Source: a virus | Lineage: Duplodnaviria; Heunggongvirae; Uroviricota; Caudoviricetes | Reading direction: 5' to 3' (one strand) | Length of the DNA stretch: 41,685 nt | Virus record (IMG/VR): IMGVR_UViG_2541047729_000013 | Shown: positions 1-26,822 of the stretch, piece by piece | Layout: the number at the start of each line of letters is the position of its first letter | Position numbering within the stretch: position 1 is the first letter of the stretch | Program-made: the position numbers and the translations under genes | Notes under the pieces: model-generated | What the model was told of the DNA's origin: nothing | What the model saw: only the letters and a program-made list of their open reading frames with translations | Databases searched by the model: none

Positions 1-516
1 ATGAAATTTAAAAAATGTCTTCTGCCTGTGGCAATGTTAGCGTCATTCACTCTGGCAGGATGCCAGTCAAATGCTGATGATCATGCCGCCGATGTTTATC
101 AAACCGATCAACTGAATACCAAACAAGAAACTAAAACCGTTAATATTATTTCCATTCTTCCCGCAAAAGTTGCCGTAGACAACGCCCAAAATAAACGGAA
201 CGCACAAGCCTTCGGCGCGCTTATTGGCGCTGTCGCTGGCGGTGTTATCGGCCACAACGTCGGGTCTGGCAGCAATTCCGGAACGACGGCAGGTGCAGTT
301 GGCGGCGGAGCTGTAGGCGCGGCAGCGGGTTCTATGGTGAATGATAAAACCTTAGTGGAAGGTGTTTCTTTAACATATAAGGAAGGCACCAAAGTGTATA
401 CCTCCACCCAGGTGGGTAAAGAGTGCCAGTTTACGACAGGTTTAGCCGTTGTTATTACCACGACGTATAACGAAACGCGTATTCAGCCAAATACCAAATG
501 TCCTGAAAAGAGCTAA
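1..516 (+). CDS. Putative lipoprotein with glycine-zipper region (probable host flank)
   Basis: Signal peptide ending in lipobox LAGC; Gly/Ala-rich stretch GALIGAVAGGVIGHNVGSG typical of glycine-zipper membrane-anchored proteins; upstream of the bidirectional terminator that precedes the phage lysis genes. Confidence 0.6.
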   Translation: MKFKKCLLPVAMLASFTLAGCQSNADDHAADVYQTDQLNTKQETKTVNIISILPAKVAVDNAQNKRNAQAFGALIGAVAGGVIGHNVGSGSNSGTTAGAVGGGAVGAAAGSMVNDKTLVEGVSLTYKEGTKVYTSTQVGKECQFTTGLAVVITTTYNETRIQPNTKCPEKS

Positions 517-531
517 TAATCAGGAGGAGTC

Positions 532-1071
532 ATGAAGAAAGTTTTTCTTTGCGCCATCTTAGCCTCCTTAAGCTATCCGGCTATCGCCTCATCATTGCAG
601 GATCAACTCTCGGCTGTCGCAGAAGCGGAACAGCAAGGTAAAAATGAAGAGCAAAGGCAGCATGACGAATGGGTCGCGGAGCGCAACAGGGAAATCCAGC
701 AAGAGAAGCAACGTCGCGCAAACGCCCAGGCCGCGGCTAATAAAAGAGCGGCAACGGCAGCAGCGAATAAGAAAGCTCGTCAGGATAAACTGGACGCCGA
801 AGCCACTGCGGACAAAAAACGCGATCAAAGTTATGAAGATGAGCTACGTAGCTTAGAGATTCAGAAACAAAAACTGGCGCTGGCGAAAGAAGAAGCCCGC
901 GTCAAGCGCGAAAACGAATTTATCGATCAGGAACTGAAGCACAAAGCTGCGCAAACCGATGTGGTGCAATCTGAAGCTGACGCAAACAGAAATATGACTG
1001 AAGGCGGTCGCGATCTGATGAAAAGCGTGGGTAAAGCAGAAGAGAATAAATCAGATAGCTGGTTTAACTAA
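532..1071 (+). CDS. Secreted coiled-coil protein, Lys/Ala/Gln/Glu-rich (probable host flank)
   Basis: RBS AGGAGG 6 nt upstream of ATG; N-terminal signal peptide (LSYPAIASS); remainder highly charged and low-complexity. Confidence 0.55.
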   Translation: MKKVFLCAILASLSYPAIASSLQDQLSAVAEAEQQGKNEEQRQHDEWVAERNREIQQEKQRRANAQAAANKRAATAAANKKARQDKLDAEATADKKRDQSYEDELRSLEIQKQKLALAKEEARVKRENEFIDQELKHKAAQTDVVQSEADANRNMTEGGRDLMKSVGKAEENKSDSWFN

Positions 1072-3393: not shown

Positions 3394-6300
3394 TTAACGT
3401 TCTTCCAGAGACTGAACCCGCTCTTTTATCTTATCCATTTCTCTGCGCTGCCATGCTGCCTCGATATAGAATAAGAGATCAGGTCTGACCCCCCATCTAG
3501 ATCCTGCTGGCGTTATTTCAACGCGCTCAATGATGTCTTCTATTACCATCACTGGATTATCATCCTCATCAACAATGATGCTCCCGTCATTATCAGTCAG
3601 CGGCATTTCCCTTTGGCCAGTAATGACGTCATCATATACTGCGGGATAATCGTCATAGCAAAGAAAGGCATAGCGGCATGTTGTGCTTTCTTCTTCCATG
3701 AGTCCGTGAGAAATAAGAACATCACGAAGTTGCTGCGCGATTACACCATGATGTATCCTCGCCCCTTCTTCCCCCTTTATAGCGACAGCGTTCAGCCATT
3801 TATAAGCGATATACCTGACGTCACCCCAGGCATCCAGCAATGCTTCGTCAGGAGAGACCGGCTCTGTCTTTAATGTTCCGTCACTGGTAACCACAGGATT
3901 GGAGCCAAGATAAACTGTCGAGAACCTGTTTCCCGGACCACCAAGAGCATTTACATTATCAAGATAAGGTTTAACATCTCCGTTCTCAAAAAGATGTTCG
4001 AGTGCGTTATATACCGCGCGACGTGGAGTACTGCTTCCGGAACCATGCAACGTTATCATTGCACCATCTGCTGAAGACGTTGTTTCACCGCCGCTAACGA
4101 TTAATCTCTGAGCGGTAACATCATCAGACGGTACTTTCTTCGCAATAATGGCGTAATTACCCTCAAGTTTGACTTCCGCGCGAACTTGTCCTGATGTACC
4201 TGCATGGACAGTCAGTGACTGGACGGCAACATCATCTGTGAAATCAACGGGTACAGGAACCGTCCTCACGCCTGACGTCGACATAAAAGTAGGAAGCGTT
4301 CTGTTAGGAGTGGCTCCGTAGACAAAATCCCTTGAAACAAATTCTTCCTGTTTAATTTTCACCCTGAAACAATACAAATCAGCCGGGTGACCATCGTGAA
4401 AATAAGGATATTTTCTGTTGTTATCCCCTATGCTCCATGGGTTTAGAAAGTCTTCCCCACCGAAAATGTAGTACAGCCAGTTGTCTTTGATACAAACTGA
4501 ACCAACACCAACCGCAGAGTTAACTATTCCGCCCTGATAAATCTGATCAGTAACATTAACCCACTCTACATTATCCAGACTCCACTCATTGACGTTAACT
4601 CTGGTCATAAATGTTCTTGGATAATTTCCTGCATAACGGTTATCAGGTTCTCCTCCTTCCCACTCACCAAATGCGCGCTCACTGCCAAAAATAATCAGCT
4701 CATCGCCAACTTTGGCAAAAGGAAGGTTTGAGTGATGAACATTATTTGGGAAGCGAAGAGAATTCCATGATGTACCTAAATCAGAGCTTCTGTGCAATGA
4801 ACTACCGGGTTGAGTACTTAATGTCCCCCTGGTCGTCAGATACAGAATGCCATCATAATATTTTACACATGGCTCAGATGCATTCGCCTCATATTCTGCA
4901 GGTATGCGTCTGCGAACAAAGCTACCAGGAGAACCGAAAGCATCAGAGAAATAGAGTATCCCAAGCTCGCGTGGACCAATATCACCATTATGGTAGCCAA
5001 CAGCAAAACTGTTATCGCTAATCGTCGCAAAACTGTGAATCTCAGTAACAGGAGTGCTTCCGTCAACAAAAGAAGGAATAGTTCCAAGACTGGTTTTTCT
5101 CCATGGTGACGAGTGAAATGATGTACCAAAACTCCAGTATCTACCCTCGTTATTCTGATCCACATCCTGGGTATTTTGCGTCGTAACTGTAAAAGTATTT
5201 TTATCAATAACAGTAGTCACCGTCATATTCCCGGTAACACCTGTAACACCAGAGTTTGAGAAGTTGACAAAATCACCAGCAAATAATCCGTGATCAGTAA
5301 TGCGAATATAAGCGACTTGCTGATTTGCTGCTTTCGTTATACCACCATAAACGCGAAGGCTGCGACTCATTGGGCGATCCCACAACTCTGCAACCTGCAG
5401 TTTATTTCCGCTCACGGTCCGCGTCTCAATTACAGCAAAAAGGCGATTTCTGACAACCCCCATACTCATGCAGTGATAGTTAACTGTGGGATAGTTTTCA
5501 TGTAAATCTGTAAGCCATTCCGGCGTTGTCCAGGTCTTCCCGTCATCTCCTGAGCGAACCCATGCAACATGGAGGTTATTTACACCATGGCGGTCTCCAG
5601 CCATAAAAGGCGCATAGATGACATTGTCATATACAAACGTTTTATCCTGCGTCCAGGCGTTGTACCACGGTGTATCTGTAATTTTAAATAACTCTCCCTG
5701 GATAAAATCTTCAGAAGCATAAAAAAGAGGCTGGCCCGGTATTCTCTCAAATAAAAAACGAGCATTTTTAAATCGACTGACATCCGGAAGAGTTGATACT
5801 TTAAAAGTAAGCCCTAATCCGTCAATTTTATAACCTGGAGATGAGGCTTCAAGGCACGCGCTTATTGCAGTGGAATCGTCATTTATACCATCACCAACAG
5901 CTCCAAAATCTTTGGGGCTAATAGCATCACGCATTTTATCCTGGAACGTTCGGTACACAGCCCCAGAACCATACTGAATAAACCAACCAAAACCACCAAC
6001 AACCCCGGAGATTGCAGCATCGACATAATTACGCATTGAGCGATTATTTACAGCGTCCTGCTCAAATGATGGATCTGCAAGGTTAGAAATTTTGTTTTGC
6101 TTTGCATCGTAATATTTTGCAAGCAAAGATGGTTTCATCAATGCACGTCTGAACCACCCAAAACATTGCTGGATCAGCATCGTCAGGTAGTCAAAGGCAT
6201 CTTCATGCACTTCGGGGAAAAATTTTCCCTGATTGCGAAGGTCTGTCTCCTGCACTACATCAAGCACACGATCTATCGTAATTCGCCATCCAGTAGCAAG

Positions 6301-6513
6301 CGGAGACGGAAGAACCACAGAACCGCCACTATAAGTGCCCGCCCCAGTTACCGTATAACCGGTATCCAGAACCAATTCTGTTACGTTTCCGTTCAGGTCA
6401 GACACCTGAACAACCAGGTCTGATTTTCTGAAAACTCGAAAAGTATACGGAAACGATGTCGTAACGCCGTTACCGGTGTATTCGTTGTGGTCAACTTCGG
6501 TTGAGACCGTCAT
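3394..6513 (-). CDS. Tailspike / tail fibre with sialidase-like beta-propeller and C-terminal intramolecular chaperone domain
   Basis: 1039 aa; N-terminus MTVSTEVDHNEYTGNGVTTSFPYTF typical of enterobacterial phage fibre adaptor domains; two Asp-box motifs (SGDDGKTW, SSDLGTSW); C-terminal segment ending ...REMDKIKERVQSLEER resembles the autoproteolytic chaperone of endosialidase-type tailspikes; RBS GGAGAT upstream. Confidence 0.8.
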   Translation of the reverse strand: MTVSTEVDHNEYTGNGVTTSFPYTFRVFRKSDLVVQVSDLNGNVTELVLDTGYTVTGAGTYSGGSVVLPSPLATGWRITIDRVLDVVQETDLRNQGKFFPEVHEDAFDYLTMLIQQCFGWFRRALMKPSLLAKYYDAKQNKISNLADPSFEQDAVNNRSMRNYVDAAISGVVGGFGWFIQYGSGAVYRTFQDKMRDAISPKDFGAVGDGINDDSTAISACLEASSPGYKIDGLGLTFKVSTLPDVSRFKNARFLFERIPGQPLFYASEDFIQGELFKITDTPWYNAWTQDKTFVYDNVIYAPFMAGDRHGVNNLHVAWVRSGDDGKTWTTPEWLTDLHENYPTVNYHCMSMGVVRNRLFAVIETRTVSGNKLQVAELWDRPMSRSLRVYGGITKAANQQVAYIRITDHGLFAGDFVNFSNSGVTGVTGNMTVTTVIDKNTFTVTTQNTQDVDQNNEGRYWSFGTSFHSSPWRKTSLGTIPSFVDGSTPVTEIHSFATISDNSFAVGYHNGDIGPRELGILYFSDAFGSPGSFVRRRIPAEYEANASEPCVKYYDGILYLTTRGTLSTQPGSSLHRSSDLGTSWNSLRFPNNVHHSNLPFAKVGDELIIFGSERAFGEWEGGEPDNRYAGNYPRTFMTRVNVNEWSLDNVEWVNVTDQIYQGGIVNSAVGVGSVCIKDNWLYYIFGGEDFLNPWSIGDNNRKYPYFHDGHPADLYCFRVKIKQEEFVSRDFVYGATPNRTLPTFMSTSGVRTVPVPVDFTDDVAVQSLTVHAGTSGQVRAEVKLEGNYAIIAKKVPSDDVTAQRLIVSGGETTSSADGAMITLHGSGSSTPRRAVYNALEHLFENGDVKPYLDNVNALGGPGNRFSTVYLGSNPVVTSDGTLKTEPVSPDEALLDAWGDVRYIAYKWLNAVAIKGEEGARIHHGVIAQQLRDVLISHGLMEEESTTCRYAFLCYDDYPAVYDDVITGQREMPLTDNDGSIIVDEDDNPVMVIEDIIERVEITPAGSRWGVRPDLLFYIEAAWQRREMDKIKERVQSLEER

Positions 6514-6990: not shown

Positions 6991-7497
6991 TTAACAGTCG
7001 TAAAATTCCGGGTCCCACAAACTTGCATCGCGCGGCATGGATTCTAAATTTTTCAGCCGCAAAATTCTGTCACACTCGACAAGAAGTTTTTGTTTTTGTT
7101 CGTCAATTTCTACTTTTTTGTGTGCTGGCTCATCCCAGTAATCCAGAAGAAACGCATGTCGCTCAGACGTTACAAGATAAATCACATACACATCACTGGT
7201 TGGTATTTTTTTATGCTTGTTGGTGGTCTTGTCTTTCTTCCCGGATGCCCAGTTTTTCCAGCATTGTTCCGTACCGCTCTCACCAAACTTGTCAGTATAG
7301 TTTCCGATGTTTACGTGAACGTGGCGTATGTGATATTCCAGCATCTCTTTCGGTGGATCCCGAAACAGAGTGTCCTTTCCGAAATCCTTATGATGACCGT
7401 AGCGCCAGTGATCTATGAACGCGTTTTTGATAGGTATTAGCTCAGGGTCCTTCCCAAAAATTCCAGGGTGAACCAACCCCTGGAATTTATTCAGCAT
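6991..7497 (-). CDS. YafO-like putative toxin (ribosome-dependent mRNA interferase family)
   Basis: Start set at internal ATG (MLNKFQ...), overlapping the upstream gene by about 11 nt; segments PGIFGKD, HIRHVHV and VYVIYLVTSERHAFLL resemble recalled YafO segments PDIFGRD, HIHLANEN and HLVYCQGAFDEQAWLL. Assignment is from memory and needs an HMM search. Confidence 0.4.
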   Translation of the reverse strand: MLNKFQGLVHPGIFGKDPELIPIKNAFIDHWRYGHHKDFGKDTLFRDPPKEMLEYHIRHVHVNIGNYTDKFGESGTEQCWKNWASGKKDKTTNKHKKIPTSDVYVIYLVTSERHAFLLDYWDEPAHKKVEIDEQKQKLLVECDRILRLKNLESMPRDASLWDPEFYDC

Positions 7498-7942
7498 CGT
7501 CGTAGAGCTCCTGAGCCATATCTTCGGCAGTGCGTGCAAACATCCTGCGCGAGATTGCATGAGATTTCTCGACGGACATCTTTGGGACCTCATGCATAAC
7601 ATTTTTGGGAGTTGTGTAATAGCCTATTACAATTTTCACACCTGACTTATGATTAATATCAGCATAATATACTTCTTGTTCAGACGTTTCACGACGAACA
7701 TAATCTGCCAGTTTTCCACATTTAAATTCCCCTCCCTGATGTTTTAAAATCTCCTCAACTGCACTATTTTCAGTGAAATACCGAATAAGAAATTTCTGTC
7801 CAGACTCTTCAGCATGAGGTATAACAGTATTATTGGAAGCCCGAACAATGGCCTTACTCAATATTTCATGGTCTTTATTTTTTTCTGATTTCCTCAAATG
7901 CTGCATTACTGTAGCTCTCTTCGTGTTCACGGGCACCCCCAA
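7487..7942 (-). CDS. Uncharacterised protein overlapping and upstream of the YafO-like gene (candidate antitoxin or partner)
   Basis: 139-151 aa depending on start (track TTG at 7942 or ATG near 7906); acidic C-terminus AQELYDDAE; no recognisable HTH. My reading of the printed sequence near 7858-7862 gave one extra nucleotide relative to the track frame; track coordinates are used. Confidence 0.45.
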   Translation of the reverse strand: MGVPVNTKRATVMQHLRKSEKNKDHEILSKAIVRASNNTVIPHAEESGQKFLIRYFTENSAVEEILKHQGGEFKCGKLADYVRRETSEQEVYYADINHKSGVKIVIGYYTTPKNVMHEVPKMSVEKSHAISRRMFARTAEDMAQELYDDAE

Positions 7943-9187: not shown

Positions 9188-9820
9188 ATGAAAACAAATA
9201 CAACAAGAAAAGCGATGCCATACATTATCCCAGAAGCAGATTTCGACAGAAAACTGAACATGTCTGAGAAGAACACTAGTCACACCGAAAGCTACTTAGC
9301 GAAAGGTGTGGTTGATTTCGTTCTTCCGGGATTCACAACACCTTATGGTTATCGCCTTGTAAAATCTTGTAATGGCGATCATTACAGAATGATTACTACC
9401 AGCGATACTCCAGAAACGGTGTATGCGGTTAAGTTAATCTTTCGGGAAGATATCGTCGAAGCTAAAAGAACATGTACGCAGATCATGGTATGGCGTACGC
9501 CTAATGTTATTCATGACCGTGCTGTTCATGGTTTGCCTCAGATTTTTTTTCAGTTCTTCCTAGAGCAATATGCGATCGTTGTATCTGATGAGCAACAAAC
9601 AATCGATGGGAGAAGATTCTGGGAAAGAATGATTTCTTGGGCTATAAACACCCCGGGATATAATGTATACGTTTCAGATGGCTCTGAAGAAGATAGACCT
9701 CTTAGCTTCATGACATCATGGGATGATTTCTATAGCCAGTGGGCTGATTTCTGTTGGGGCAGTGATAAAGATGTGCATACCCACAGACTACTGGTTATAA
9801 GCAAAGATAAACTGCATTAA
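9188..9820 (+). CDS. Hypothetical protein (210 aa), accessory/moron gene
   Basis: Strong RBS GGAGG; followed by a clean intrinsic terminator; AT-rich codon usage unlike the structural genes; no motif I can assign. Confidence 0.6.
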   Translation: MKTNTTRKAMPYIIPEADFDRKLNMSEKNTSHTESYLAKGVVDFVLPGFTTPYGYRLVKSCNGDHYRMITTSDTPETVYAVKLIFREDIVEAKRTCTQIMVWRTPNVIHDRAVHGLPQIFFQFFLEQYAIVVSDEQQTIDGRRFWERMISWAINTPGYNVYVSDGSEEDRPLSFMTSWDDFYSQWADFCWGSDKDVHTHRLLVISKDKLH

Positions 9821-9822
9821 TA

Positions 9823-9846
9823 GAAGCCCGCAGCGCGGGCTTTTTT
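9823..9846 (+). terminator. Rho-independent terminator after the 9188-9820 gene
   Basis: GC stem GCCCGC / GCGGGC with short loop followed by TTTTTT. Confidence 0.75.
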
Positions 9847-9918
9847 GTGGACGAAACAAAAGTCAGTGCTACACTCATTGACGCCACATTGAGGTGGCTT
9901 ATAGATGGAAATTTCACA

Positions 9919-10080
9919 ATGAAAAAAGCATTTGCTGCACTGTTCGTTTTGTTGTCTCTGGTAGCTTCAACTCAGGCCTTTGCCGGTCGTTGTCAGCACG
10001 ACAGCGATACTGCTGCTGACGGCTCCCGCTGCGGTGGGCGTTCTGCGGATTCCCGCCCGGGTGGCGGTGGCATTCGTTAA
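9919..10080 (+). CDS. Small secreted peptide (53 aa precursor)
   Basis: Internal ATG of track ORF 9847-10080; canonical signal peptide MKKAFAALFVLLSLVASTQAFA followed by a Gly/Arg/Asp-rich 30-aa part with two Cys; followed by a bidirectional terminator. Confidence 0.4.
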   Translation: MKKAFAALFVLLSLVASTQAFAGRCQHDSDTAADGSRCGGRSADSRPGGGGIR

Positions 10081-10085
10081 AAACA

Positions 10086-10107
10086 AGGCCGCGAAAGCGG
10101 CCTGTTT
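10086..10107. terminator. Bidirectional terminator between convergent accessory genes
   Basis: AGGCCGC-GAAA-GCGGCCT hairpin flanked by A-run and T-run; separates the + peptide gene and the - secreted-protein gene ending at 10110. Confidence 0.6.
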
Positions 10108-10109
10108 GA

Positions 10110-10961
10110 TCACTGTGCAGTTTTCGCTGATCGATTTTCAGCTCTAAATTCAAGAACCGTTTCAATATTTCTTTCCTTCAGCATATCAATAACATTTTTA
10201 TTCATTTGACTATCACTGGTTAATAACTGGTAAACGTTGCTTCTCTCTTTATCAGAGTTTTCTTTAACAGCTGCTTTGCATGCCAAATGCTTATTGAAAT
10301 TTTCTACATCGCTAGTACAGGAATTTACGGCTGCTGATGAAATATCAGACGCTGAAGAAACACCATCATCCAAACGTTTTATAGCATTTTCTATACATGA
10401 GTTAAGGGAATAAACGACAACTGAGCGATACCCTTCAGACGCACACCATTCTAAATTTCTTGAAGGATCGAGTGGTTTTACTTCGCTGGATTGAATTAAC
10501 TTGTCAAAAACTGACTTATATTCAATCTGTTTTTTATCTATAGCCCATACTTCAGTAGCTGATTTATAATTCCCCGTATGCCTATTAACATCAAATCCAT
10601 GTTTTATAAGCAAATCTGCCCATGAAAGATTTATTGATTCATTGTTATGAGGCCATTTTCCTGTCAGAACCGCCCCCATAGACCCCATATATCCGCCATA
10701 TGATGGTATAGCACCATGGCTCAGTAACTTCTCAGCAACCACAGGGCAATTAATTACATAAGAGGCGTAAAGCCCATTCCATAAAGCCCCTCTATAGTAA
10801 TCGCCACGATTAGGTTCTTTTAAGTCGATAGCCTTTGATAATTGTTCACACGTTTTGCATGCATCAAAGTTATCCTTATTGCATTGCAATGAACTGGCAG
10901 CTGTAGGATTTACAGAGACTATTGAAAGCACTATGCCAAAAAACAAATTTATTTTTTTCAT
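10110..10961 (-). CDS. Secreted Cys-rich protein with ankyrin-like repeats (accessory gene)
   Basis: Signal peptide MKKINLFFGIVLSIVSVNPTAAS; at least 8 Cys; segments ADLLIKHGFDVNRHTG and VAEKLLSHGAIPSYGG resemble ankyrin-repeat consensus; AT-rich; directly downstream (2-nt gap) of the 1129-aa virion protein gene. Confidence 0.55.
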   Translation of the reverse strand: MKKINLFFGIVLSIVSVNPTAASSLQCNKDNFDACKTCEQLSKAIDLKEPNRGDYYRGALWNGLYASYVINCPVVAEKLLSHGAIPSYGGYMGSMGAVLTGKWPHNNESINLSWADLLIKHGFDVNRHTGNYKSATEVWAIDKKQIEYKSVFDKLIQSSEVKPLDPSRNLEWCASEGYRSVVVYSLNSCIENAIKRLDDGVSSASDISSAAVNSCTSDVENFNKHLACKAAVKENSDKERSNVYQLLTSDSQMNKNVIDMLKERNIETVLEFRAENRSAKTAQ

Positions 10962-10962
10962 C

Positions 10963-13900
10963 CTATTTCATCTGCTCTTCAACTTTATTTAGTAACGGTG
11001 ATATTGCCCACAGGTTCTGAAAAGGTAGCATTTTACGGACCGCGTGGGTTTGCTGGCTGTCAAATTCTCCGTTAAGTACACCATTCGCAACCGTCGCGGC
11101 ATCACCGCCAAGATCAAAGGTAGGACCAAGTAAAGCACCAATAGCATTACGACTCTGAAACCTTGATACCGGAGGCGCACCAAACATCGCGCCAAGACCA
11201 AACCTACCGCCGCTTATGTTCTCAACGGTATTCAGCGGCTCAGAGAGCCAGCCAAGCATTCCGCCCCGGTCGATCCCCTCTTTCACAAGGTTATTCCAGC
11301 TGTAGTCAATATCGCGACCGCTTAACTTCTGTTTCATCATATAGACCATTGAGCCAAGCGCAATCGTGCCAAGCGCACCAAGATAGAATGCAGCATCGCC
11401 CTGCTGGATACCAGATACCAGCACCCTGTTATGCTGTGCGAAGATAAACGTTTTGAACTGCGTGATCATCTTCCAGCCTTCTTTACTAAAAAACAGCGGT
11501 GTATCACCTACGCCAGGCGTTACAATCACTGAGTCTACATCTTTCAGCACTGCAGACTGGAAAATCTCTCTAGCGAAACGGTCATCCCACAGATGACTAT
11601 GCCCGGTTAACAGCCCGTCCATATCCTCTCCGTGCTTCCCGAATTGCTCCCCGATTCGGCGCAGAACATCTTCATTGATGCCGACCTGTGCCATCTTCCG
11701 CATTTCACTTTTGGAGAGCGTGCCACCAGCAGAAACTTGGCGAGCCGCGTCAAGTATCCTCGACTGCACTATCATCCCGGACCATGATTTAAGTGCGCTG
11801 TTCCACTGATTCATCAGCGTCCAGTTACCGAATTTCTGCGTCATCCAGTTCAGGCCTCGCTCAGCGGCGCTTCTCCGGCTATATGGGTCAGTAAGATCCG
11901 CTATAGCCTTTGTACGCGTAGACAGGACATAATCAAGCCCAACGGCCATTTCTCGCAAATCCCTGGTTGCAATTTTCACTGAGTCCATATTTTTAAGCAT
12001 GCTTACCATTGGTCCGAGAGATTTTCTCAGGCCATGCTGCATCATCGGTCGCATCAGATCAGTTGCAGCGGAGACAGTCATTCCACCAAGCAAACGGAGG
12101 AAGTTAATATTCCTAGCAACTCGCCCGGCACGAACAAAGAAACTGCGTGGATCTTGAGGTGCACCGTAAGTACCAAGCAGTCGATCACGCATAGCCGTAA
12201 TATCCCTAATATCAGCCTCCCGTTGCTTCTCAAGAACTGCACGTCGTTTAGGCGTTTTAGCCTCTTTTATTAGCCGGGTATATTCCTCACTAACCTGACG
12301 GATTTGCTCCCCCATATCTTTACGGCCAAACTGCGCAGTCAGCTCAATTTCTGGTGCCACCTGCCGGAGATAACTTTCCATGATGTAGTTAACATCTGAT
12401 TCAAGAAAATCTTCTATACGCTCATCAGGAATAAGCAGCGTTCTGCTTTTAGTGAAACCAGCCCGACCAACGAGTCTCTCTGGGATAATATCGGCTGGTA
12501 CAAGCCCGGAAGGTGCACCTATTATTTTATTCACGATCTCGTCAGCAGCGTCCTCTGCTTCCTCTCGGGATAGAGGCTCCATCTGCTTCAGTGCTCGTTC
12601 GCGGCTTGCATTCAGCCTTGTGGTTGAATTTGCCCGTTTTTGCAGTCGGCGAAGCTCAGAACGATATTTCCGTGGATTATCCAGCAACTCCATATGGCGC
12701 TGATAGACAGGAAGCTCACTCTTTGCCTGCGCTATATCATCAAGGCGTGTTTTAAGGTCAGAGCTTTCTTTCATCATTCTTGCCTGAAGTTTTTCTGATG
12801 AAGTCTCGGCCAACTCTTTTTCTATTCTTGTAAGACGCGCCTGTGTGTCAGTCTCCTGAGATATAAGCTTATTTCGTTTATCCAGTTCTTCCATGAGTAG
12901 AATTTTTTTACCAGACCATTTCTCCGCTTCAGCGATTTCACTAGCGAGAGCATCAGCGCGCGGTGCCGATTCCTCTGCAGTTTTTAGCAATGAATTTATC
13001 CTTTCAATTCGCTGACCTGCCTTGTCAGCACCTTTGGCACTAATCCCTTGTATCCAGTTGGCAATTCGCCCTCTGAATTCAGTGCGGTCGGAAAGTATCT
13101 TATCGAACTTATAAATGCGGGGAAGATAACTTTTCGCCGTCACGACATCGATATCCTCAGGAAGGATCCCCAGTTCCTGCATACGGGCTTTTGTGGTCTC
13201 GAAAATGGGGCGGATTCTGGCAGCTGCTTGTGAAACCTCAGGAATATCACTCTGATCACCACGGCGCATAGCCATGCCAACAGCTTCATTGAAATCAATA
13301 AAGTTCATCCTCTTCACGCCGCGGGCGCTAACAGATTTGCTGTACTGCTGGTAAGCATCACGAGTGGCTTCCATCTGCTTATAAAGCATGGCGTCGTATT
13401 GCTTAATCTTAGTCTCGACTGCCGTAAACGTAGCCAACCCCTCATCATTTTTGGCGAAGAAATAGTTATTTTCGGCAAGCTGCTGGTTAATCTGACGGGA
13501 GACAAGAGATGGTGATTGCGCCAAGCGGCCAGCAGGAGTGACACTCAACGTTTTGTTAGCAAGTCCAAGTCCAGCGAGCTGTTCCTGATCGAGTGTGGTA
13601 TTGAAAACCTGAGCTGCACCAATGCTTTGAGGAGAATCCATACCTCGCAAATGATTACCTACTGAGTTAACCACTGCCTCGCGCGCGCCAGGTCCAGCAA
13701 GTAGCTGTGCACCAGCACCAAGGATCCCACCAACGAGAGCATCAACAACAACGTTCGATACGCTCTCCATCGGTGAGCGAGCTTCCTGAGTGGCCTGTAA
13801 TGCGGCCTCTGAAGCAACACTGCCAGCAGCATTCGCCAGGGCAAAACGCCCGGCTGTTTCTGCAATACGACCGCCACGAACGACAGCGCCGAACGGAATA

Positions 13901-14352
13901 AACATAGAAATCGCATTGAATGGATCTGCTAATCTCATTGCTACAGAAGAGACTGTACCAGCAAATCCCAAGCCTGAATTGTATTCCATGTCAGCTCTCT
14001 GCTGATCGATTCGATGTTTAATTGCCATTGTTTCTTCAGGCGAACCGGAGTTGATAAACGAATCTGCAAAATCTTCATAGCCTTTAATATCTGCTGCATC
14101 GTTATCAAATGGGTTATATCCTTCAACCCTGTCAAACTGACTGAAAGGAGCACTGGCAATAAAGCTACCCAGCGTGTTATCTATACGAAATGCTGCTTGT
14201 CTAGACCTTTGAACGCGTTGATCACTGGTAAATGGGTTCACAGCAGAAAGCAAAGAAGGTGTTTCCATATAGAAATTACTGTCATCAGGTGCTGCTATTT
14301 GCTGAATATCCTCGCCAAGCAACTCTTTAGGATCCTGTTCATATATCGGCAT
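10963..14352 (-). CDS. Large internal virion / ejection protein (T7 gp16-like position)
   Basis: 1129 aa; translationally coupled to upstream 915-aa gene (shared ATGA); position after the gp15-like gene and before the fibre region. Assignment by size and synteny only. Confidence 0.55.
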   Translation of the reverse strand: MPIYEQDPKELLGEDIQQIAAPDDSNFYMETPSLLSAVNPFTSDQRVQRSRQAAFRIDNTLGSFIASAPFSQFDRVEGYNPFDNDAADIKGYEDFADSFINSGSPEETMAIKHRIDQQRADMEYNSGLGFAGTVSSVAMRLADPFNAISMFIPFGAVVRGGRIAETAGRFALANAAGSVASEAALQATQEARSPMESVSNVVVDALVGGILGAGAQLLAGPGAREAVVNSVGNHLRGMDSPQSIGAAQVFNTTLDQEQLAGLGLANKTLSVTPAGRLAQSPSLVSRQINQQLAENNYFFAKNDEGLATFTAVETKIKQYDAMLYKQMEATRDAYQQYSKSVSARGVKRMNFIDFNEAVGMAMRRGDQSDIPEVSQAAARIRPIFETTKARMQELGILPEDIDVVTAKSYLPRIYKFDKILSDRTEFRGRIANWIQGISAKGADKAGQRIERINSLLKTAEESAPRADALASEIAEAEKWSGKKILLMEELDKRNKLISQETDTQARLTRIEKELAETSSEKLQARMMKESSDLKTRLDDIAQAKSELPVYQRHMELLDNPRKYRSELRRLQKRANSTTRLNASRERALKQMEPLSREEAEDAADEIVNKIIGAPSGLVPADIIPERLVGRAGFTKSRTLLIPDERIEDFLESDVNYIMESYLRQVAPEIELTAQFGRKDMGEQIRQVSEEYTRLIKEAKTPKRRAVLEKQREADIRDITAMRDRLLGTYGAPQDPRSFFVRAGRVARNINFLRLLGGMTVSAATDLMRPMMQHGLRKSLGPMVSMLKNMDSVKIATRDLREMAVGLDYVLSTRTKAIADLTDPYSRRSAAERGLNWMTQKFGNWTLMNQWNSALKSWSGMIVQSRILDAARQVSAGGTLSKSEMRKMAQVGINEDVLRRIGEQFGKHGEDMDGLLTGHSHLWDDRFAREIFQSAVLKDVDSVIVTPGVGDTPLFFSKEGWKMITQFKTFIFAQHNRVLVSGIQQGDAAFYLGALGTIALGSMVYMMKQKLSGRDIDYSWNNLVKEGIDRGGMLGWLSEPLNTVENISGGRFGLGAMFGAPPVSRFQSRNAIGALLGPTFDLGGDAATVANGVLNGEFDSQQTHAVRKMLPFQNLWAISPLLNKVEEQMK

Positions 14353-17099
14353 TATTTGCCCCCTGCGTATATATTGCTCGGAAGGTAATTGGCTGAACCA
14401 TAACCGAATGGTTTGGTCAGATCTGGAGGAGTATATCCATCTTTATTGCTGAACTGCGGCAGCGGATTGCCTTCTCTCCGCACTCTAGCCTCATCAACAC
14501 GCTGTTGCTGGAACTGAATGGTTTGCCTGTACATTGGAGATGTCAGCTGATCCGGCTTGAAACGAACAGGGAGACCATTTTCTCCAATATAATTTCTCGG
14601 TTCTATCGCTCCGTTTGCGTCAGGCTGTAAAACCATAACAGCATAACTCCTATCCCTTGCCGTAAGGCCATCAGAAACAAGTATTAAGTCCGTATCACTG
14701 CGAGGACCGCCAAAGGATTTTGATTTAAGCTCGCGTTTTTCCTGCTCCCACTGCCCCTGTATCCAGTTACCAGCACCATTATTTACTCCGTACAATGCCT
14801 CAGGTGCATACTTCATAACCTCTGCTTTGCCATTAACTGTAGAAACTCCCCAGGTGGTTCTGATCATGGCATTGGTCATTTTCTCAGCCTGTTCTGCATC
14901 GCCACCTGTCTGTACAAAGTTAGCATCGTAAATTGTCTGGTAATCTCGCTGATAGGCCGCATTTGATTTTCCTGGATCGGTAATATCCGGAGACCACGAA
15001 CCAAAGGAAGTCAGACTGCTGGCGTTATTTTGTGCAGCAGTTGCCCTCGCCGCGACATATTTTTTGTCTCGCATGGCAGTGGAAAGCATCTGTTTCATTC
15101 GGTCATCCTGTTGGAACACCTGGCTGTAAGCCATATCAACAGCCTTATCCTCCGGCACGCCAGCGCGGGAATAATCGTAAACCTTGCCGTAAAATGCCAT
15201 CGTACTTTTATCAAGTGTTGCCGCTGCCGCCGGATTATTATCAAATAACTGACCGTAGAATTTTGCCATCGGGACAACCAGCGCAGGATCTCTTGATGTT
15301 GCTCCACTGTTAAGCATTGTTTTAACCTGAGTTGGTATCATGCCGCTTTTAGTTGTGACGGTGACCAGTGTATTGATGCTCTGCGGATCAGATATGGAAA
15401 ACGAAGGCGCGATATCCTGCGCGAAATAACGGTCTACCGCTGCCTGATTGTTTTTGTCGTTCGGGTCCAGCGGGAAGTTATTTTGCATTGAAGACACGAA
15501 CCTGTTTCTTCCCTGCTGAATCTCCCACTCCCTATCCATCTCTTTAAATTTGGCCTGCATTTTCTCCCAGCGTTGCTGGTTAGCTGCAAATCCAGGAGCG
15601 TTTGGATCCTGTGGACGTAAACGTTCAAGAATGTCTTGTCGTCCTTCTGGAGTGAGGTCTTTAGCGGCACCAATGACACCTCCATATTGTATCTGCGCCT
15701 GCATATCCTTCCACTTCATAGCGCCAATGCGCGGACCATTGGCCCGGATAAAATCGTCCTCAGAAGGTAACTTCTCAGGTTTCAATCCTTCATCAAGGGC
15801 TGAATATGCATCTTTAACTACGGTGCTAAGCTGGTCCGCATACTGCTGGCGGTACTGATTTCTCAGCTCATTAGCCTGCCTCAATGCCTGTATTTGCATT
15901 TGAGGGCTCATAGCGTCAAATGCCGCATTGCCCGTATAACGCTTAGGTGAATCAAGGTTAGTTAGACCAAGGGATGCCGAGATACCAGTTTCAAGCTGTT
16001 CGGTGCTATAAGGCATACTGCCATTTTCGTGTTTAATAATCCCAGCACATAAAGCAGCTAGTGTCTTTGGGTTAGAGATATCAAGCTGATCATTCTCCCC
16101 AACACCAAGCTCACTACACAATGCCCTAATATAAGCATCAGTATTATTACCATCACTAGCCGGAGCATAGCGATTAACAATCTCGCTAACGGTGTCATAG
16201 CCTTGACGCTGGTAAGACAACATATTTTTACCCAACGCGCGGATTCCATGCTCAGGGGTAGCAAACGTTGCAAAACGTCCATCGCTACCGATCTGACCTT
16301 CCCACGGGTTAGATTTGCTCGCTTCAATATTACCAGGGTTATTATTACGTAAACCACGAGCATCCAATGAATTACCATGTGATATTGCACGACTCACACC
16401 ATCAAGATCCCCTGGCTCTCCATTAACCTGAAGAAACTCGTTGTATTTTTGAGCGATATTTCCTATCCATGCTTGCTGCCCCATTTGTTCCTTGAGCTGA
16501 GTTTTCTGCTGAACACGCCACCCATCAGGAAGCCCATGTGCATCAGCGTATTGATCAATAGATTCAAATCGCTGCTTGGCTAAATCGACAAATGCTTGGT
16601 TATCGCTATATAGCCCCGCAGACTGAGTGACAGCCAATGCATTTCCTGACAAATACGTTTGATCTTGGAATTGCTGAAACTGCCCAACTTCATATCGACG
16701 TGCCTGATTGTAATAAGACTGCATAGACTGCTGGAGTTGAAAGGATAATTTATTCCTTTCCTCACTTTCAGGAATTGAGCCTAATAATGCCTGAGCCCTT
16801 TCCTGCATATTTTTCATAACAGCGTCACTCTGACCAAGAGCGTTTTTACCCTGTTTAGAAATCAGCCCATTTTCAGGGTTGTTAATCTGGTCATCTGCAA
16901 ATTGGTTAAATTGCAGTAACGCCTCCTGAGCCATAGCAACATTCGCTTTCTGCCTGGCTTCACCATATGCCACCGCATACTGATCTGCGACATTCGCCAG
17001 CACCTGACCTGCTTGAGGAACATCGAAGGTCTGAAAACCACCGGTTTGCACACCACGACTTTGCACCTGGCGTCCGGATGTAGTAGGAACAACTGGCAT
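14352..17099 (-). CDS. Large internal virion protein (gp15-like position), possible cell-wall hydrolase motif
   Basis: 915 aa; start coupled to upstream gene; segment GLRNNNPGNIEASKSNPWEGQ resembles motifs seen in virion-associated murein hydrolases (from memory, unverified). Confidence 0.55.
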   Translation of the reverse strand: MPVVPTTSGRQVQSRGVQTGGFQTFDVPQAGQVLANVADQYAVAYGEARQKANVAMAQEALLQFNQFADDQINNPENGLISKQGKNALGQSDAVMKNMQERAQALLGSIPESEERNKLSFQLQQSMQSYYNQARRYEVGQFQQFQDQTYLSGNALAVTQSAGLYSDNQAFVDLAKQRFESIDQYADAHGLPDGWRVQQKTQLKEQMGQQAWIGNIAQKYNEFLQVNGEPGDLDGVSRAISHGNSLDARGLRNNNPGNIEASKSNPWEGQIGSDGRFATFATPEHGIRALGKNMLSYQRQGYDTVSEIVNRYAPASDGNNTDAYIRALCSELGVGENDQLDISNPKTLAALCAGIIKHENGSMPYSTEQLETGISASLGLTNLDSPKRYTGNAAFDAMSPQMQIQALRQANELRNQYRQQYADQLSTVVKDAYSALDEGLKPEKLPSEDDFIRANGPRIGAMKWKDMQAQIQYGGVIGAAKDLTPEGRQDILERLRPQDPNAPGFAANQQRWEKMQAKFKEMDREWEIQQGRNRFVSSMQNNFPLDPNDKNNQAAVDRYFAQDIAPSFSISDPQSINTLVTVTTKSGMIPTQVKTMLNSGATSRDPALVVPMAKFYGQLFDNNPAAAATLDKSTMAFYGKVYDYSRAGVPEDKAVDMAYSQVFQQDDRMKQMLSTAMRDKKYVAARATAAQNNASSLTSFGSWSPDITDPGKSNAAYQRDYQTIYDANFVQTGGDAEQAEKMTNAMIRTTWGVSTVNGKAEVMKYAPEALYGVNNGAGNWIQGQWEQEKRELKSKSFGGPRSDTDLILVSDGLTARDRSYAVMVLQPDANGAIEPRNYIGENGLPVRFKPDQLTSPMYRQTIQFQQQRVDEARVRREGNPLPQFSNKDGYTPPDLTKPFGYGSANYLPSNIYAGGK

Positions 17100-17677
17100 C
17101 AGTAACCTCCTATTTTGAATCGGGAGTCAGAATTCATAAAACCTGAGTTAGATAACATTGGCGTCCCACCACTAGATGTACTTCCTTTAGAGAACGGACT
17201 CCACGTTCCGCCGCCCAACTTATATGCACCGTATGCTTTTAGTGGTGCTGTTAACAAAGTGCTGGTCATCGATGATTTAGCAGCCGACTGAGCAGCAGCC
17301 CCCTGTGCCTGAGCATTCATTCCCTGAACCTGATACCCATATGCCTCACGCTGAGCATTATTCACTGTCGTTAACGCATCAAGAGTGCCGAACTGAGCAT
17401 TATCCGCAAAAACGTCAAGAGCTGTTCCGCTACTTAATTCCGCACCGGTAGCCCCCATAGTGGCCGCCGCAGTGCCTGAGCGTTGACGCATTTCACGACG
17501 ACGCTGATCTGCTTCAATATTCCCACGATTGATTGAATCCTGTGCCTGAGCTTCAGCAATTTCAGCATTCCGATCAGCTATGGCTGACTGGTATTTTGCC
17601 TGCTTGCTCTGGCTGTACATTGACGCGGCTGTGGATGCCACTGTGACGGCAACCAAAGCGATGGCTGGGTTACACAT
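17099..17677 (-). CDS. Internal virion protein (gp14-like position)
   Basis: 192 aa; N-terminal hydrophobic segment, Ala/Gln-rich; overlapping start/stop with neighbours. Confidence 0.5.
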   Translation of the reverse strand: MCNPAIALVAVTVASTAASMYSQSKQAKYQSAIADRNAEIAEAQAQDSINRGNIEADQRRREMRQRSGTAAATMGATGAELSSGTALDVFADNAQFGTLDALTTVNNAQREAYGYQVQGMNAQAQGAAAQSAAKSSMTSTLLTAPLKAYGAYKLGGGTWSPFSKGSTSSGGTPMLSNSGFMNSDSRFKIGGY

Positions 17678-26745: not shown

Positions 26746-26822
26746 GTGGCATTAGCTCAGTTGGACAGAGCAACCGCCTTCTAAGCGGTTGGTCGCAGGT
26801 TCGAATCCTGCATGCCACGCCA
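26746..26822 (+). tRNA. tRNA-Arg (anticodon UCU), phage-encoded
   Basis: Hand-folded cloverleaf: acceptor GTGGCAT/ATGCCAC, D-stem GCTC/GAGC, anticodon stem ACCGC/GCGGT with loop CTTCTAA (anticodon TCT), T-arm GCAGG-TTCGAAT-CCTGC, discriminator G, encoded CCA. Confidence 0.85.

Follow-up and report, generated by a model that had tools for sequence, protein, structure and literature searches.

A secreted two-domain ankyrin-like protein encoded behind the ejection genes of an Escherichia coli prophage: a candidate inhibitor of Enc34-type peptidoglycan hydrolases

Phage T4 encodes Spackle (Sp, gene 61.3), a small periplasmic protein that binds and inhibits gp5, the tail lysozyme of incoming virions, so that the cell resists lysis from without and excludes superinfecting phages (PMC7677548). 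In Bdellovibrio bacteriovorus, the ankyrin protein Bd3460 is encoded beside a hydrolase gene and binds and neutralises the predator's own DD-endopeptidases (PMC4686830). The immunity proteins of type VI secretion systems (T6SS), such as Rap1a, Tai and Tsi or the ankyrin-type Tli of Enterobacter cloacae, carry signal peptides and are often disulfide-bonded periplasmic binders, encoded beside effectors that degrade the cell wall or membrane. One T6SS effector that includes an Enc34-like domain is known to have signal-peptide-bearing immunity proteins (PMC13340143). Here we analyse a gene that shares features with all three systems, ORF-B, which encodes 283 amino acids and lies in a 41,685-nt stretch of caudoviral DNA (IMG/VR record IMGVR_UViG_2541047729_000013), hereafter the window. 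From sequence comparisons we tentatively propose that its product is a periplasmic binder and inhibitor of peptidoglycan hydrolases of the Enc34 type.

ORF-B (10110-10961, minus strand; RefSeq coding sequence WP_000723561.1) is annotated as a hypothetical protein, and so is the convergent ORF-A (9919-10080, plus strand; WP_000708858.1), the gene of a 53-residue precursor. An initial annotation had singled out these two open reading frames, and both are present as it described them. Their ratios of nonsynonymous to synonymous substitution (dN/dS) between E. coli and Klebsiella copies are 0.17 for ORF-B (0.10 in its N domain and 0.20 in its C domain) and 0.06 for ORF-A, so that both are under purifying selection and are real coding genes. 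ORF-B starts 1 nt behind the stop codon of the gene for a 1129-residue ejection protein, directly behind the giant gene as had been noted. That both genes are AT-rich, as also stated, holds for ORF-B (36.7% G+C, versus 48.3% for the whole window) and fails for ORF-A (56.8%). Neither protein has a match in the Pfam, NCBIfam and PADLOC libraries, PADLOC-DB yields no defence-system match for them or for four neighbouring genes, and PHROGs places them only in families of unknown function or with a generic "membrane associated" label.

Both proteins carry Sec signal peptides, as the initial annotation had proposed; we called these from the sequence and the pattern of conservation (charge of the n-region, an h-region of 10-16 residues, small residues at -3 and -1). 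MKK is followed in each by 14-16 hydrophobic residues and a small-residue cleavage motif, a pattern kept in the homologues, in which the N-terminus is variable yet hydrophobic and the mature part conserved. The signal peptide of ORF-B (residues 1-24, MKKINLFFGIVLSIVSVNPTAASS; 10890-10961, minus strand) reads by inspection as a signal peptidase I substrate, consisting of MKK, INLFFGIVLSIVSV and NPTAAS, with S as the first mature residue; the corresponding regions of its homologues end in ALA-K or AxA-type motifs just ahead of the first invariant cysteine. The lipobox of a lipoprotein (signal peptidase II; [LVI][ASTVI][GAS]C) is present neither in ORF-B (SLQ-C) nor at the cleavage region of ORF-A (AGR-C), and in nearly all homologues a Q, K or N/R stands ahead of the Cys. 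The mature part of ORF-B holds exactly eight cysteines (C27, C35, C38, C72, C173, C189, C215 and C228), in line with the earlier count of at least eight, and all are invariant in 14 homologues.

An exhaustive profile search divides ORF-B into an N and a C domain, each of which also occurs in free-standing secreted homologues. The N domain (residues ~25-158; 10488-10889, minus strand) combines a cap rich in cysteine (C27, C35, C38 and C72) with some three ankyrin-like repeats of divergent sequence, and has the motifs YYRGALWNGLY, LLxxGAxPxxGG and KWPHNN; its free-standing homologues are numerous, about 160 residues long, and all have a signal peptide. Its profile matches canonical multi-ankyrin proteins over several stretches, and ankyrins are the only matches when it is searched against the PDB. 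The domain shows profile-level homology to canonical ankyrin arrays and a helix-turn-helix repeat fold. At the level of Pfam the Ank-clan gathering threshold is not reached, and ORF-B has no Pfam match at E values up to 0.1. It also differs from the canonical repeats of that clan in that its roughly three repeats are irregular, stand behind a four-cysteine cap and are periplasmic. The ankyrin-like signatures reported at the outset are therefore justified as a divergent, profile-level relationship. Ankyrin repeats are a protein-binding scaffold. On four marine contigs (L066, L068, L071 and L072; e.g. L071:3548-4987) a signal peptide and MORN-like repeats (GxxYxGEFKDG) are fused ahead of the N-domain module in proteins of 460-485 residues.

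A potential partner emerged when the N-domain alignment was scanned against genomes and metagenomes, which gave 28 loci outside enterobacterial phages, most of them in metagenome-assembled genomes of Bdellovibrionota and Deltaproteobacteria, in Marinobacter, or on contigs of soil and marine origin. Clustering of the neighbouring genes revealed one recurring family, proteins of 210-260 residues with the motifs RN(N/Q)NPGNI, F.F...E.G..A and AP..EN..Y, which lack signal peptides and belong to the Enc34 type (PHA02564). Such a protein is present at 8 of the 28 loci and directly adjacent to the N-domain gene at seven, in three arrangements (upstream overlapping, convergent and downstream overlapping). 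The eighth locus (L005) is a different, myovirus-like prophage whose N-domain gene has the domain 3.2 kb upstream, as part of a 542-residue virion protein. We estimate, by a binomial calculation with an assumed background of 2% per locus, that such co-occurrence would arise by chance with a probability of ~5e-8, or of ~5e-6 when about six independent lineages are counted. One contig (L070:724-2905) carries an N-domain homologue, then two small proteins with signal peptides, then a 217-residue protein that contains the motif YLDSEGYVTVGCG and matches Phage_lysozyme weakly, below threshold (E 0.0018).

A hidden Markov model built from the partner proteins matched only one open reading frame in the window, that of a 915-residue virion protein (gp915; E 9.6e-22) encoded two genes upstream of ORF-B. 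Free-standing N-domain homologues show the direct adjacency seen between effector and immunity genes, and in the case of ORF-B the enzyme domain is found two genes upstream. The domain (residues ~243-402 of gp915; 15894-16373, minus strand; motifs RNNNPGNI, FATFATPEHGIRA, NRYAP and KHENGS) matches the catalytic domain solved for the endolysin of Hafnia phage Enc34 (PDB 7Q47, E 2.8e-15) and the N-terminus of Gp29, a chain of 1295 residues (9vvp_L of entry 9vvp, E 9.7e-35). Members of the Enc34 family are muralytic by experiment; their helical fold is lysozyme-like, with a catalytic Glu (PMC8943055) whose counterpart in gp915 is, by alignment, the E of KHENGS. The domain is widespread, with 808 phage records that include internal virion protein D of Kayfunavirus-type phages. 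In the window it is the only one of its kind, and the lysis cassette lacks an Enc34-type enzyme.

The genes concerned form the end of a minus-strand late operon, in the order T7 gp14-like protein (192 residues; 17099-17677; PF24072 T7_gp14, E 6.5e-9), gp915 (14352-17099, in the gp15 position), the 1129-residue internal virion protein (10963-14352, in the T7 gp16 position) and, last, ORF-B. The T7 gp14-like protein ahead of them supports our reading of the 915- and 1129-residue proteins as ejection (core) proteins. The muralytic domain occupies a central stretch of the gp15-position protein and not the N-terminus of the gp16-like one. The latter matches phrog_342, "internal virion protein with endolysin domain", but only from profile position 192 onwards, which suggests that it lacks the lysin part found at the N-terminus of this family; the 1129-residue protein, considered as lysin carrier on account of the PHROG name, was rejected since the domain matches lie in gp915.

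These observations allow an exclusion or envelope-protection role to be given a candidate mechanism, namely the inhibition of the Enc34-type domain in injected virion proteins. The Sec signal peptide would export ORF-B to the periplasm, where up to four disulfide bonds would stabilise it, and the ankyrin-like N domain would bind and block hydrolase domains of the Enc34 type. Such domains are carried by the injected gp915, by many other coliphages and by some T6SS effectors. A cell making ORF-B would thereby resist wall damage and DNA entry by sibling or related superinfecting phages, lysis from without included.

In this scheme ORF-B would be a functional analogue of Spackle, Bd3460 and the T6SS immunity proteins. 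It resembles Spackle as a phage-encoded, signal-peptide-bearing, helical periplasmic protein, and its inhibitor role is predicted by analogy. The two differ in their targets (T4 lysozyme-type for Spackle, Enc34/PHA02564-type as proposed for ORF-B), in architecture, since ORF-B is two-domain and ankyrin-based, and in gene position, Spackle being an early gene and ORF-B the last one of a late operon. Neither ORF-B nor the profile of either domain found Spackle when searched against the PDB, and no sequence or fold relationship is detectable. With Bd3460 the protein shares the secreted ankyrin-repeat build and the proximity to a hydrolase gene, and free-standing N-domain homologues adjoin the muralytic gene in metagenome-assembled genomes of Bdellovibrionota. 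Yet Bd3460, which is not among the matches of the PDB profile searches, targets DD-endopeptidases and not the glycosidase-like enzymes of the Enc34 type, while ORF-B is phage-borne and carries an additional Cys-rich cap and C domain.

This C domain (residues ~159-283; 10113-10487, minus strand) contains the other four cysteines (C173, C189, C215 and C228) and the motif LDDGVSSASDIS, of the general form LDDG[VI]SxASDI. It is modelled as a helical bundle with a predicted local distance difference test score (pLDDT) above 90, and a PDB search found no relative. Free-standing homologues are secreted proteins of 110-155 residues with a common C-x9-LDDG[VI]SxASDIA-x5-C and a C-terminal VLxxR. The domain probably gives ORF-B a second function, in binding or oligomerisation. 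Of the loci of free-standing C domains (L079-L081 and L112), some were of insufficient length and the others were mobile elements in which no partner stood out. On one metagenomic contig, C domains form a tandem array of a 192-residue two-copy protein (L079:749-1327) followed by a 112-residue paralogue (L079:1345-1683).

Full-length ORF-B is restricted to a small family of 22 clusters in E. coli, Klebsiella, Serratia, Morganella and Providencia, and is carried by 65 of 5426 complete E. coli genomes, among them lineages of extraintestinal (ExPEC) and avian (APEC) pathogenic K1 strains. Homologues down to 40% identity always lie directly 3' of a homologue of the 1129-residue protein, and all nine ORF-B-bearing loci examined retain the Enc34-type domain in their counterpart of gp915. 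The loci of phiV10, TL-2011b and the Cronobacter and Klebsiella epsilon15-like prophages lack ORF-B, and the Enc34-type domain was not seen in the stretches retrieved from them. The slot behind the ejection genes is a hot spot of accessory genes. It holds small membrane proteins in phiV10 and the Cronobacter prophages, and in a Klebsiella epsilon15-like prophage a protein of the Rap1a family (L114:6711-7094, minus strand; PF18602, T6SS amidase immunity). A secreted protein of 134 residues is encoded 3' of the latter (L114:6238-6642, minus strand); its core C-x-DD-x-D-x-A-x-C is weakly similar to the ORF-B C domain, at an hhalign probability of 32% that is only suggestive. A relationship of the C domain to Rap1a itself was considered and rejected (hhalign E 0.42).

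An immunity-like gene in the slot equivalent to that of ORF-B is in keeping with the inhibitor reading. Alternatively, ORF-B could be an orphan interbacterial immunity protein, which would inhibit Enc34-type effectors (T6SS or contact-dependent) of competitor bacteria and protect the lysogen rather than act against phages. In keeping with this, the ejection proteins of the Rap1a-bearing Klebsiella prophage have no matching amidase domain, the free-standing Enc34-type partners resemble exported effectors in having no signal peptide, the tandem C-domain paralogues resemble arrays of immunity genes, and there is the precedent of the T6SS effector mentioned above. We consider this explanation rather unlikely. 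T6SS genes stand beside an N-domain homologue in none of the examined loci. ORF-B is tightly linked to a virion protein that itself bears the Enc34-type domain, and protection from competitors would require constitutive expression in the lysogen, which is uncertain as no promoter of its own was found. Compared with known T6SS immunity proteins, ORF-B matches no immunity model of Pfam or PADLOC, its C domain is dissimilar to the Rap1a-like protein, and no T6SS genes were seen near any homologue.

Several observations weigh against the inhibition of Enc34-type hydrolases by ORF-B. Adjacency could instead mean that the N-domain protein is an activator, a chaperone or a targeting partner of the enzyme. 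The model of the N domain reaches a pLDDT of only 50-80, and Foldseek returned no significant match in the PDB and BFVD. The co-occurrence of ORF-B and the Enc34-type domain within this phage group is confounded by linkage, as both lie in a single module. In Klebsiella phage ST512-KPC3phi13.3 the two ejection proteins are present (92% identity) together with the Enc34-type domain, but the slot is taken by an unrelated, cytoplasmic 204-residue protein, and ORF-B is therefore dispensable. The Morganella-type relative L040 encodes both an ORF-B homologue and a 158-residue Enc34-type endolysin (L040:10196-10672, plus strand), located between holin-like genes and an Rz-like gene; a broad inhibitor would hinder lysis in L040, and a narrow specificity or a lysis-tuning role would therefore be required. 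A consensus scan found no sigma-70-like promoter 5' of ORF-B, which makes expression in the lysogen doubtful. Finally, 20 of the 28 free-standing loci lack the partner, many of their contigs being short and some of the long ones lacking it as well.

This last count also fits a different kind of periplasmic accessory protein, with a target other than a hydrolase, for instance a factor of K1 ExPEC that acts on the envelope or in interaction with the host, or a protein that binds one of the host's periplasmic proteins, as ankyrin proteins such as AnkB of P. aeruginosa do. Ankyrin repeats bind partners of many kinds, and ORF-B occurs in ExPEC and APEC K1 strains. Between E. coli and Klebsiella phages (L035) the synonymous divergence (dS) is 0.41 for ORF-B and 1.32 for the adjacent 1129-residue gene, so that the AT-rich cassette was exchanged more recently than its neighbour diverged, as a fitness moron might be. 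To us such a target seems improbable nonetheless, since it leaves unexplained the repeated adjacency to Enc34-type genes, in three arrangements and several lineages, and the presence of the domain in the same operon; the homologues in environmental and predatory bacteria also argue against a role specific to an animal host.

The timing of expression bears on how an inhibitor of Enc34-type hydrolases would act. ORF-B has a deviant G+C content, a patchy distribution and a terminator, together with a 1-nt gap to the upstream gene and the missing promoter. Because it abuts the late operon without a promoter of its own, it may be a late lytic gene instead of a lysogen-expressed moron. If it is made late, producing cells would be shielded from wall damage by sibling virions, a timing that fits the classical moron less well. 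Its position as the last gene of the late operon, and the fact that L040 has an Enc34-type endolysin as well as an ORF-B homologue, have also led us to consider ORF-B as a regulator of the phage's own cycle, that is, a periplasmic brake on stray muralytic activity of the virion protein or of an Enc34-type endolysin that would tune the timing of lysis. This we hold to be quite unlikely, given that the only Enc34-type domain of the window is in gp915 and none in the lysis cassette, that in the producing cell the virion protein stays in the cytoplasm, and that a close relative manages without ORF-B.

The initial annotation treated ORF-A and ORF-B jointly, and their being a functional pair is contradicted by their distribution: ORF-A is carried by 499 of the 5426 genomes versus 65 for ORF-B, and also by unrelated prophages, one of them in Pectobacterium. 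ORF-A is therefore an independent small transcription unit and accessory gene, not partnered with ORF-B. Its family (phrog_14503) comprises 57 clusters across the Enterobacterales (Escherichia, Shigella, Citrobacter, Klebsiella, Cronobacter, Salmonella, Pectobacterium, Dickeya and Franconibacter). The signal peptide (residues 1-22, MKKAFAALFVLLSLVASTQAFA) reads MKK, AFAALFVLLSLVAS and TQAFA, with G following the cleavage site, and the mature peptide has 31 residues (GRCQHDSDTAADGSRCGGRSADSRPGGGGIR) with two invariant cysteines. In the homologues the first 22 residues are variable yet hydrophobic and end in AxA, while the next 31, G[NR]CQHDSDTAADGSRCGGRSADSRPGG.., are almost invariant, cysteines included. 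This contrast argues for a cleaved signal peptide and a functional secreted peptide with no membrane anchor, although the sources label the family "transmembrane anchored protein"; the AlphaFold2 (AF2) model is confident for the signal helix only. An Excalibur or DxDxDG calcium loop was considered and rejected, the spacing being wrong and a Pfam match lacking. The earlier suggestion that both are accessory prophage genes with exported products is supported. That ORF-A is an envelope-acting peptide of lysogenic conversion or exclusion, secreted and disulfide-looped, is a low-confidence guess.

ORF-A, patchy in its distribution, has terminators on both sides. Upstream, a terminator-like hairpin read from the sequence (GCCCGC-AGC-GCGGGC followed by T6; 9826-9846, plus strand) lies 3' of the gene of a 210-residue protein (9188-9820; phrog_1349) that matched no known family. 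This hairpin, unlisted by the consensus scan, is kept in the corresponding position of TL-2011b and of Klebsiella loci, and would end the upstream transcription unit just 5' of ORF-A. In the 29-bp spacer between the convergent genes, a G+C-rich hairpin (AGGCCGC-TTTC-GCGGCCT; 10086-10103, terminator-like on the minus strand) is kept in TL-2011b and phiV10, where the phage record labels it a terminator, and is the end of both convergent units. About 20 nt 5' of the ORF-A start codon lies a stem-loop (GCCAC-ATTGAG-GTGGC; 9883-9898, plus strand) that recurs in other genera with other letters, in L035, L039, L113, L114 and L115 (GCCAC/GTGGC, CCACC/GGTGG, GCCGC/GCGGA, AGCCA/TGGCT) and is followed by a T-run in some loci. 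Two of its five pairs are changed on both sides according to RNAalifold, weak support as only six homologous upstream regions were available; it could serve as a 5' stabiliser or attenuator. The promoter candidate TTGACG-16-TATAGA of ORF-A was rejected as it is not conserved in Klebsiella loci.

The window as a whole is a temperate podophage-like prophage. The region is 100% identical to E. coli K1 strains IHE3034 and APEC O18, and the sewage isolate phage EC.W1-9 is 99% identical to it. Besides the late operon it encodes an endosialidase tailspike (3394-6513), and no repeats of the CUS-3/neuO type were seen in it. At its left edge are two accessory genes for a glycine-zipper/TraT-like protein (1-516, plus strand) and a DUF5384 protein (532-1071, plus strand). 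Between the tailspike gene and a BRO-N antirepressor-like gene lie a RefSeq YafO-family type II toxin gene (6991-7497, minus strand) and an overlapping gene upstream of it (7487-7930, minus strand), and a tRNA-Arg gene (anticodon TCT) is located within the prophage at 26746-26822 (plus strand).

Taken further, and with somewhat less assurance than for ORF-B alone, the N domain may represent a family of immunity proteins, secreted and ankyrin-like, that is widespread yet undescribed and specific for hydrolases of the Enc34/PHA02564 type. In temperate podophages it would have become joined to a second periplasmic module and, set behind the ejection genes, would act as an "anti-lysin" to exclude any phage with that core enzyme, Kayfunavirus-type K1 phages included, and possibly T6SS effectors; ORF-A would be a separate, ultra-conserved secreted 31-residue disulfide-loop peptide with an envelope target of its own. 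If true, ORF-B would constitute only the second mechanistic class of phage periplasmic inhibitors of virion-borne lysins after T4 Spackle, and the first one directed at the Enc34/PHA02564 family, whose phage records include those of the T7-like K1 phages considered for therapy of K1 E. coli. Prophages with ORF-B could then blunt such phages, or antibacterials based on lysins of the Enc34 fold, and a little-studied class of lysins would have gained its cognate inhibitors. The slot behind the ejection genes suggests itself as a hunting ground for further periplasmic immunity genes.

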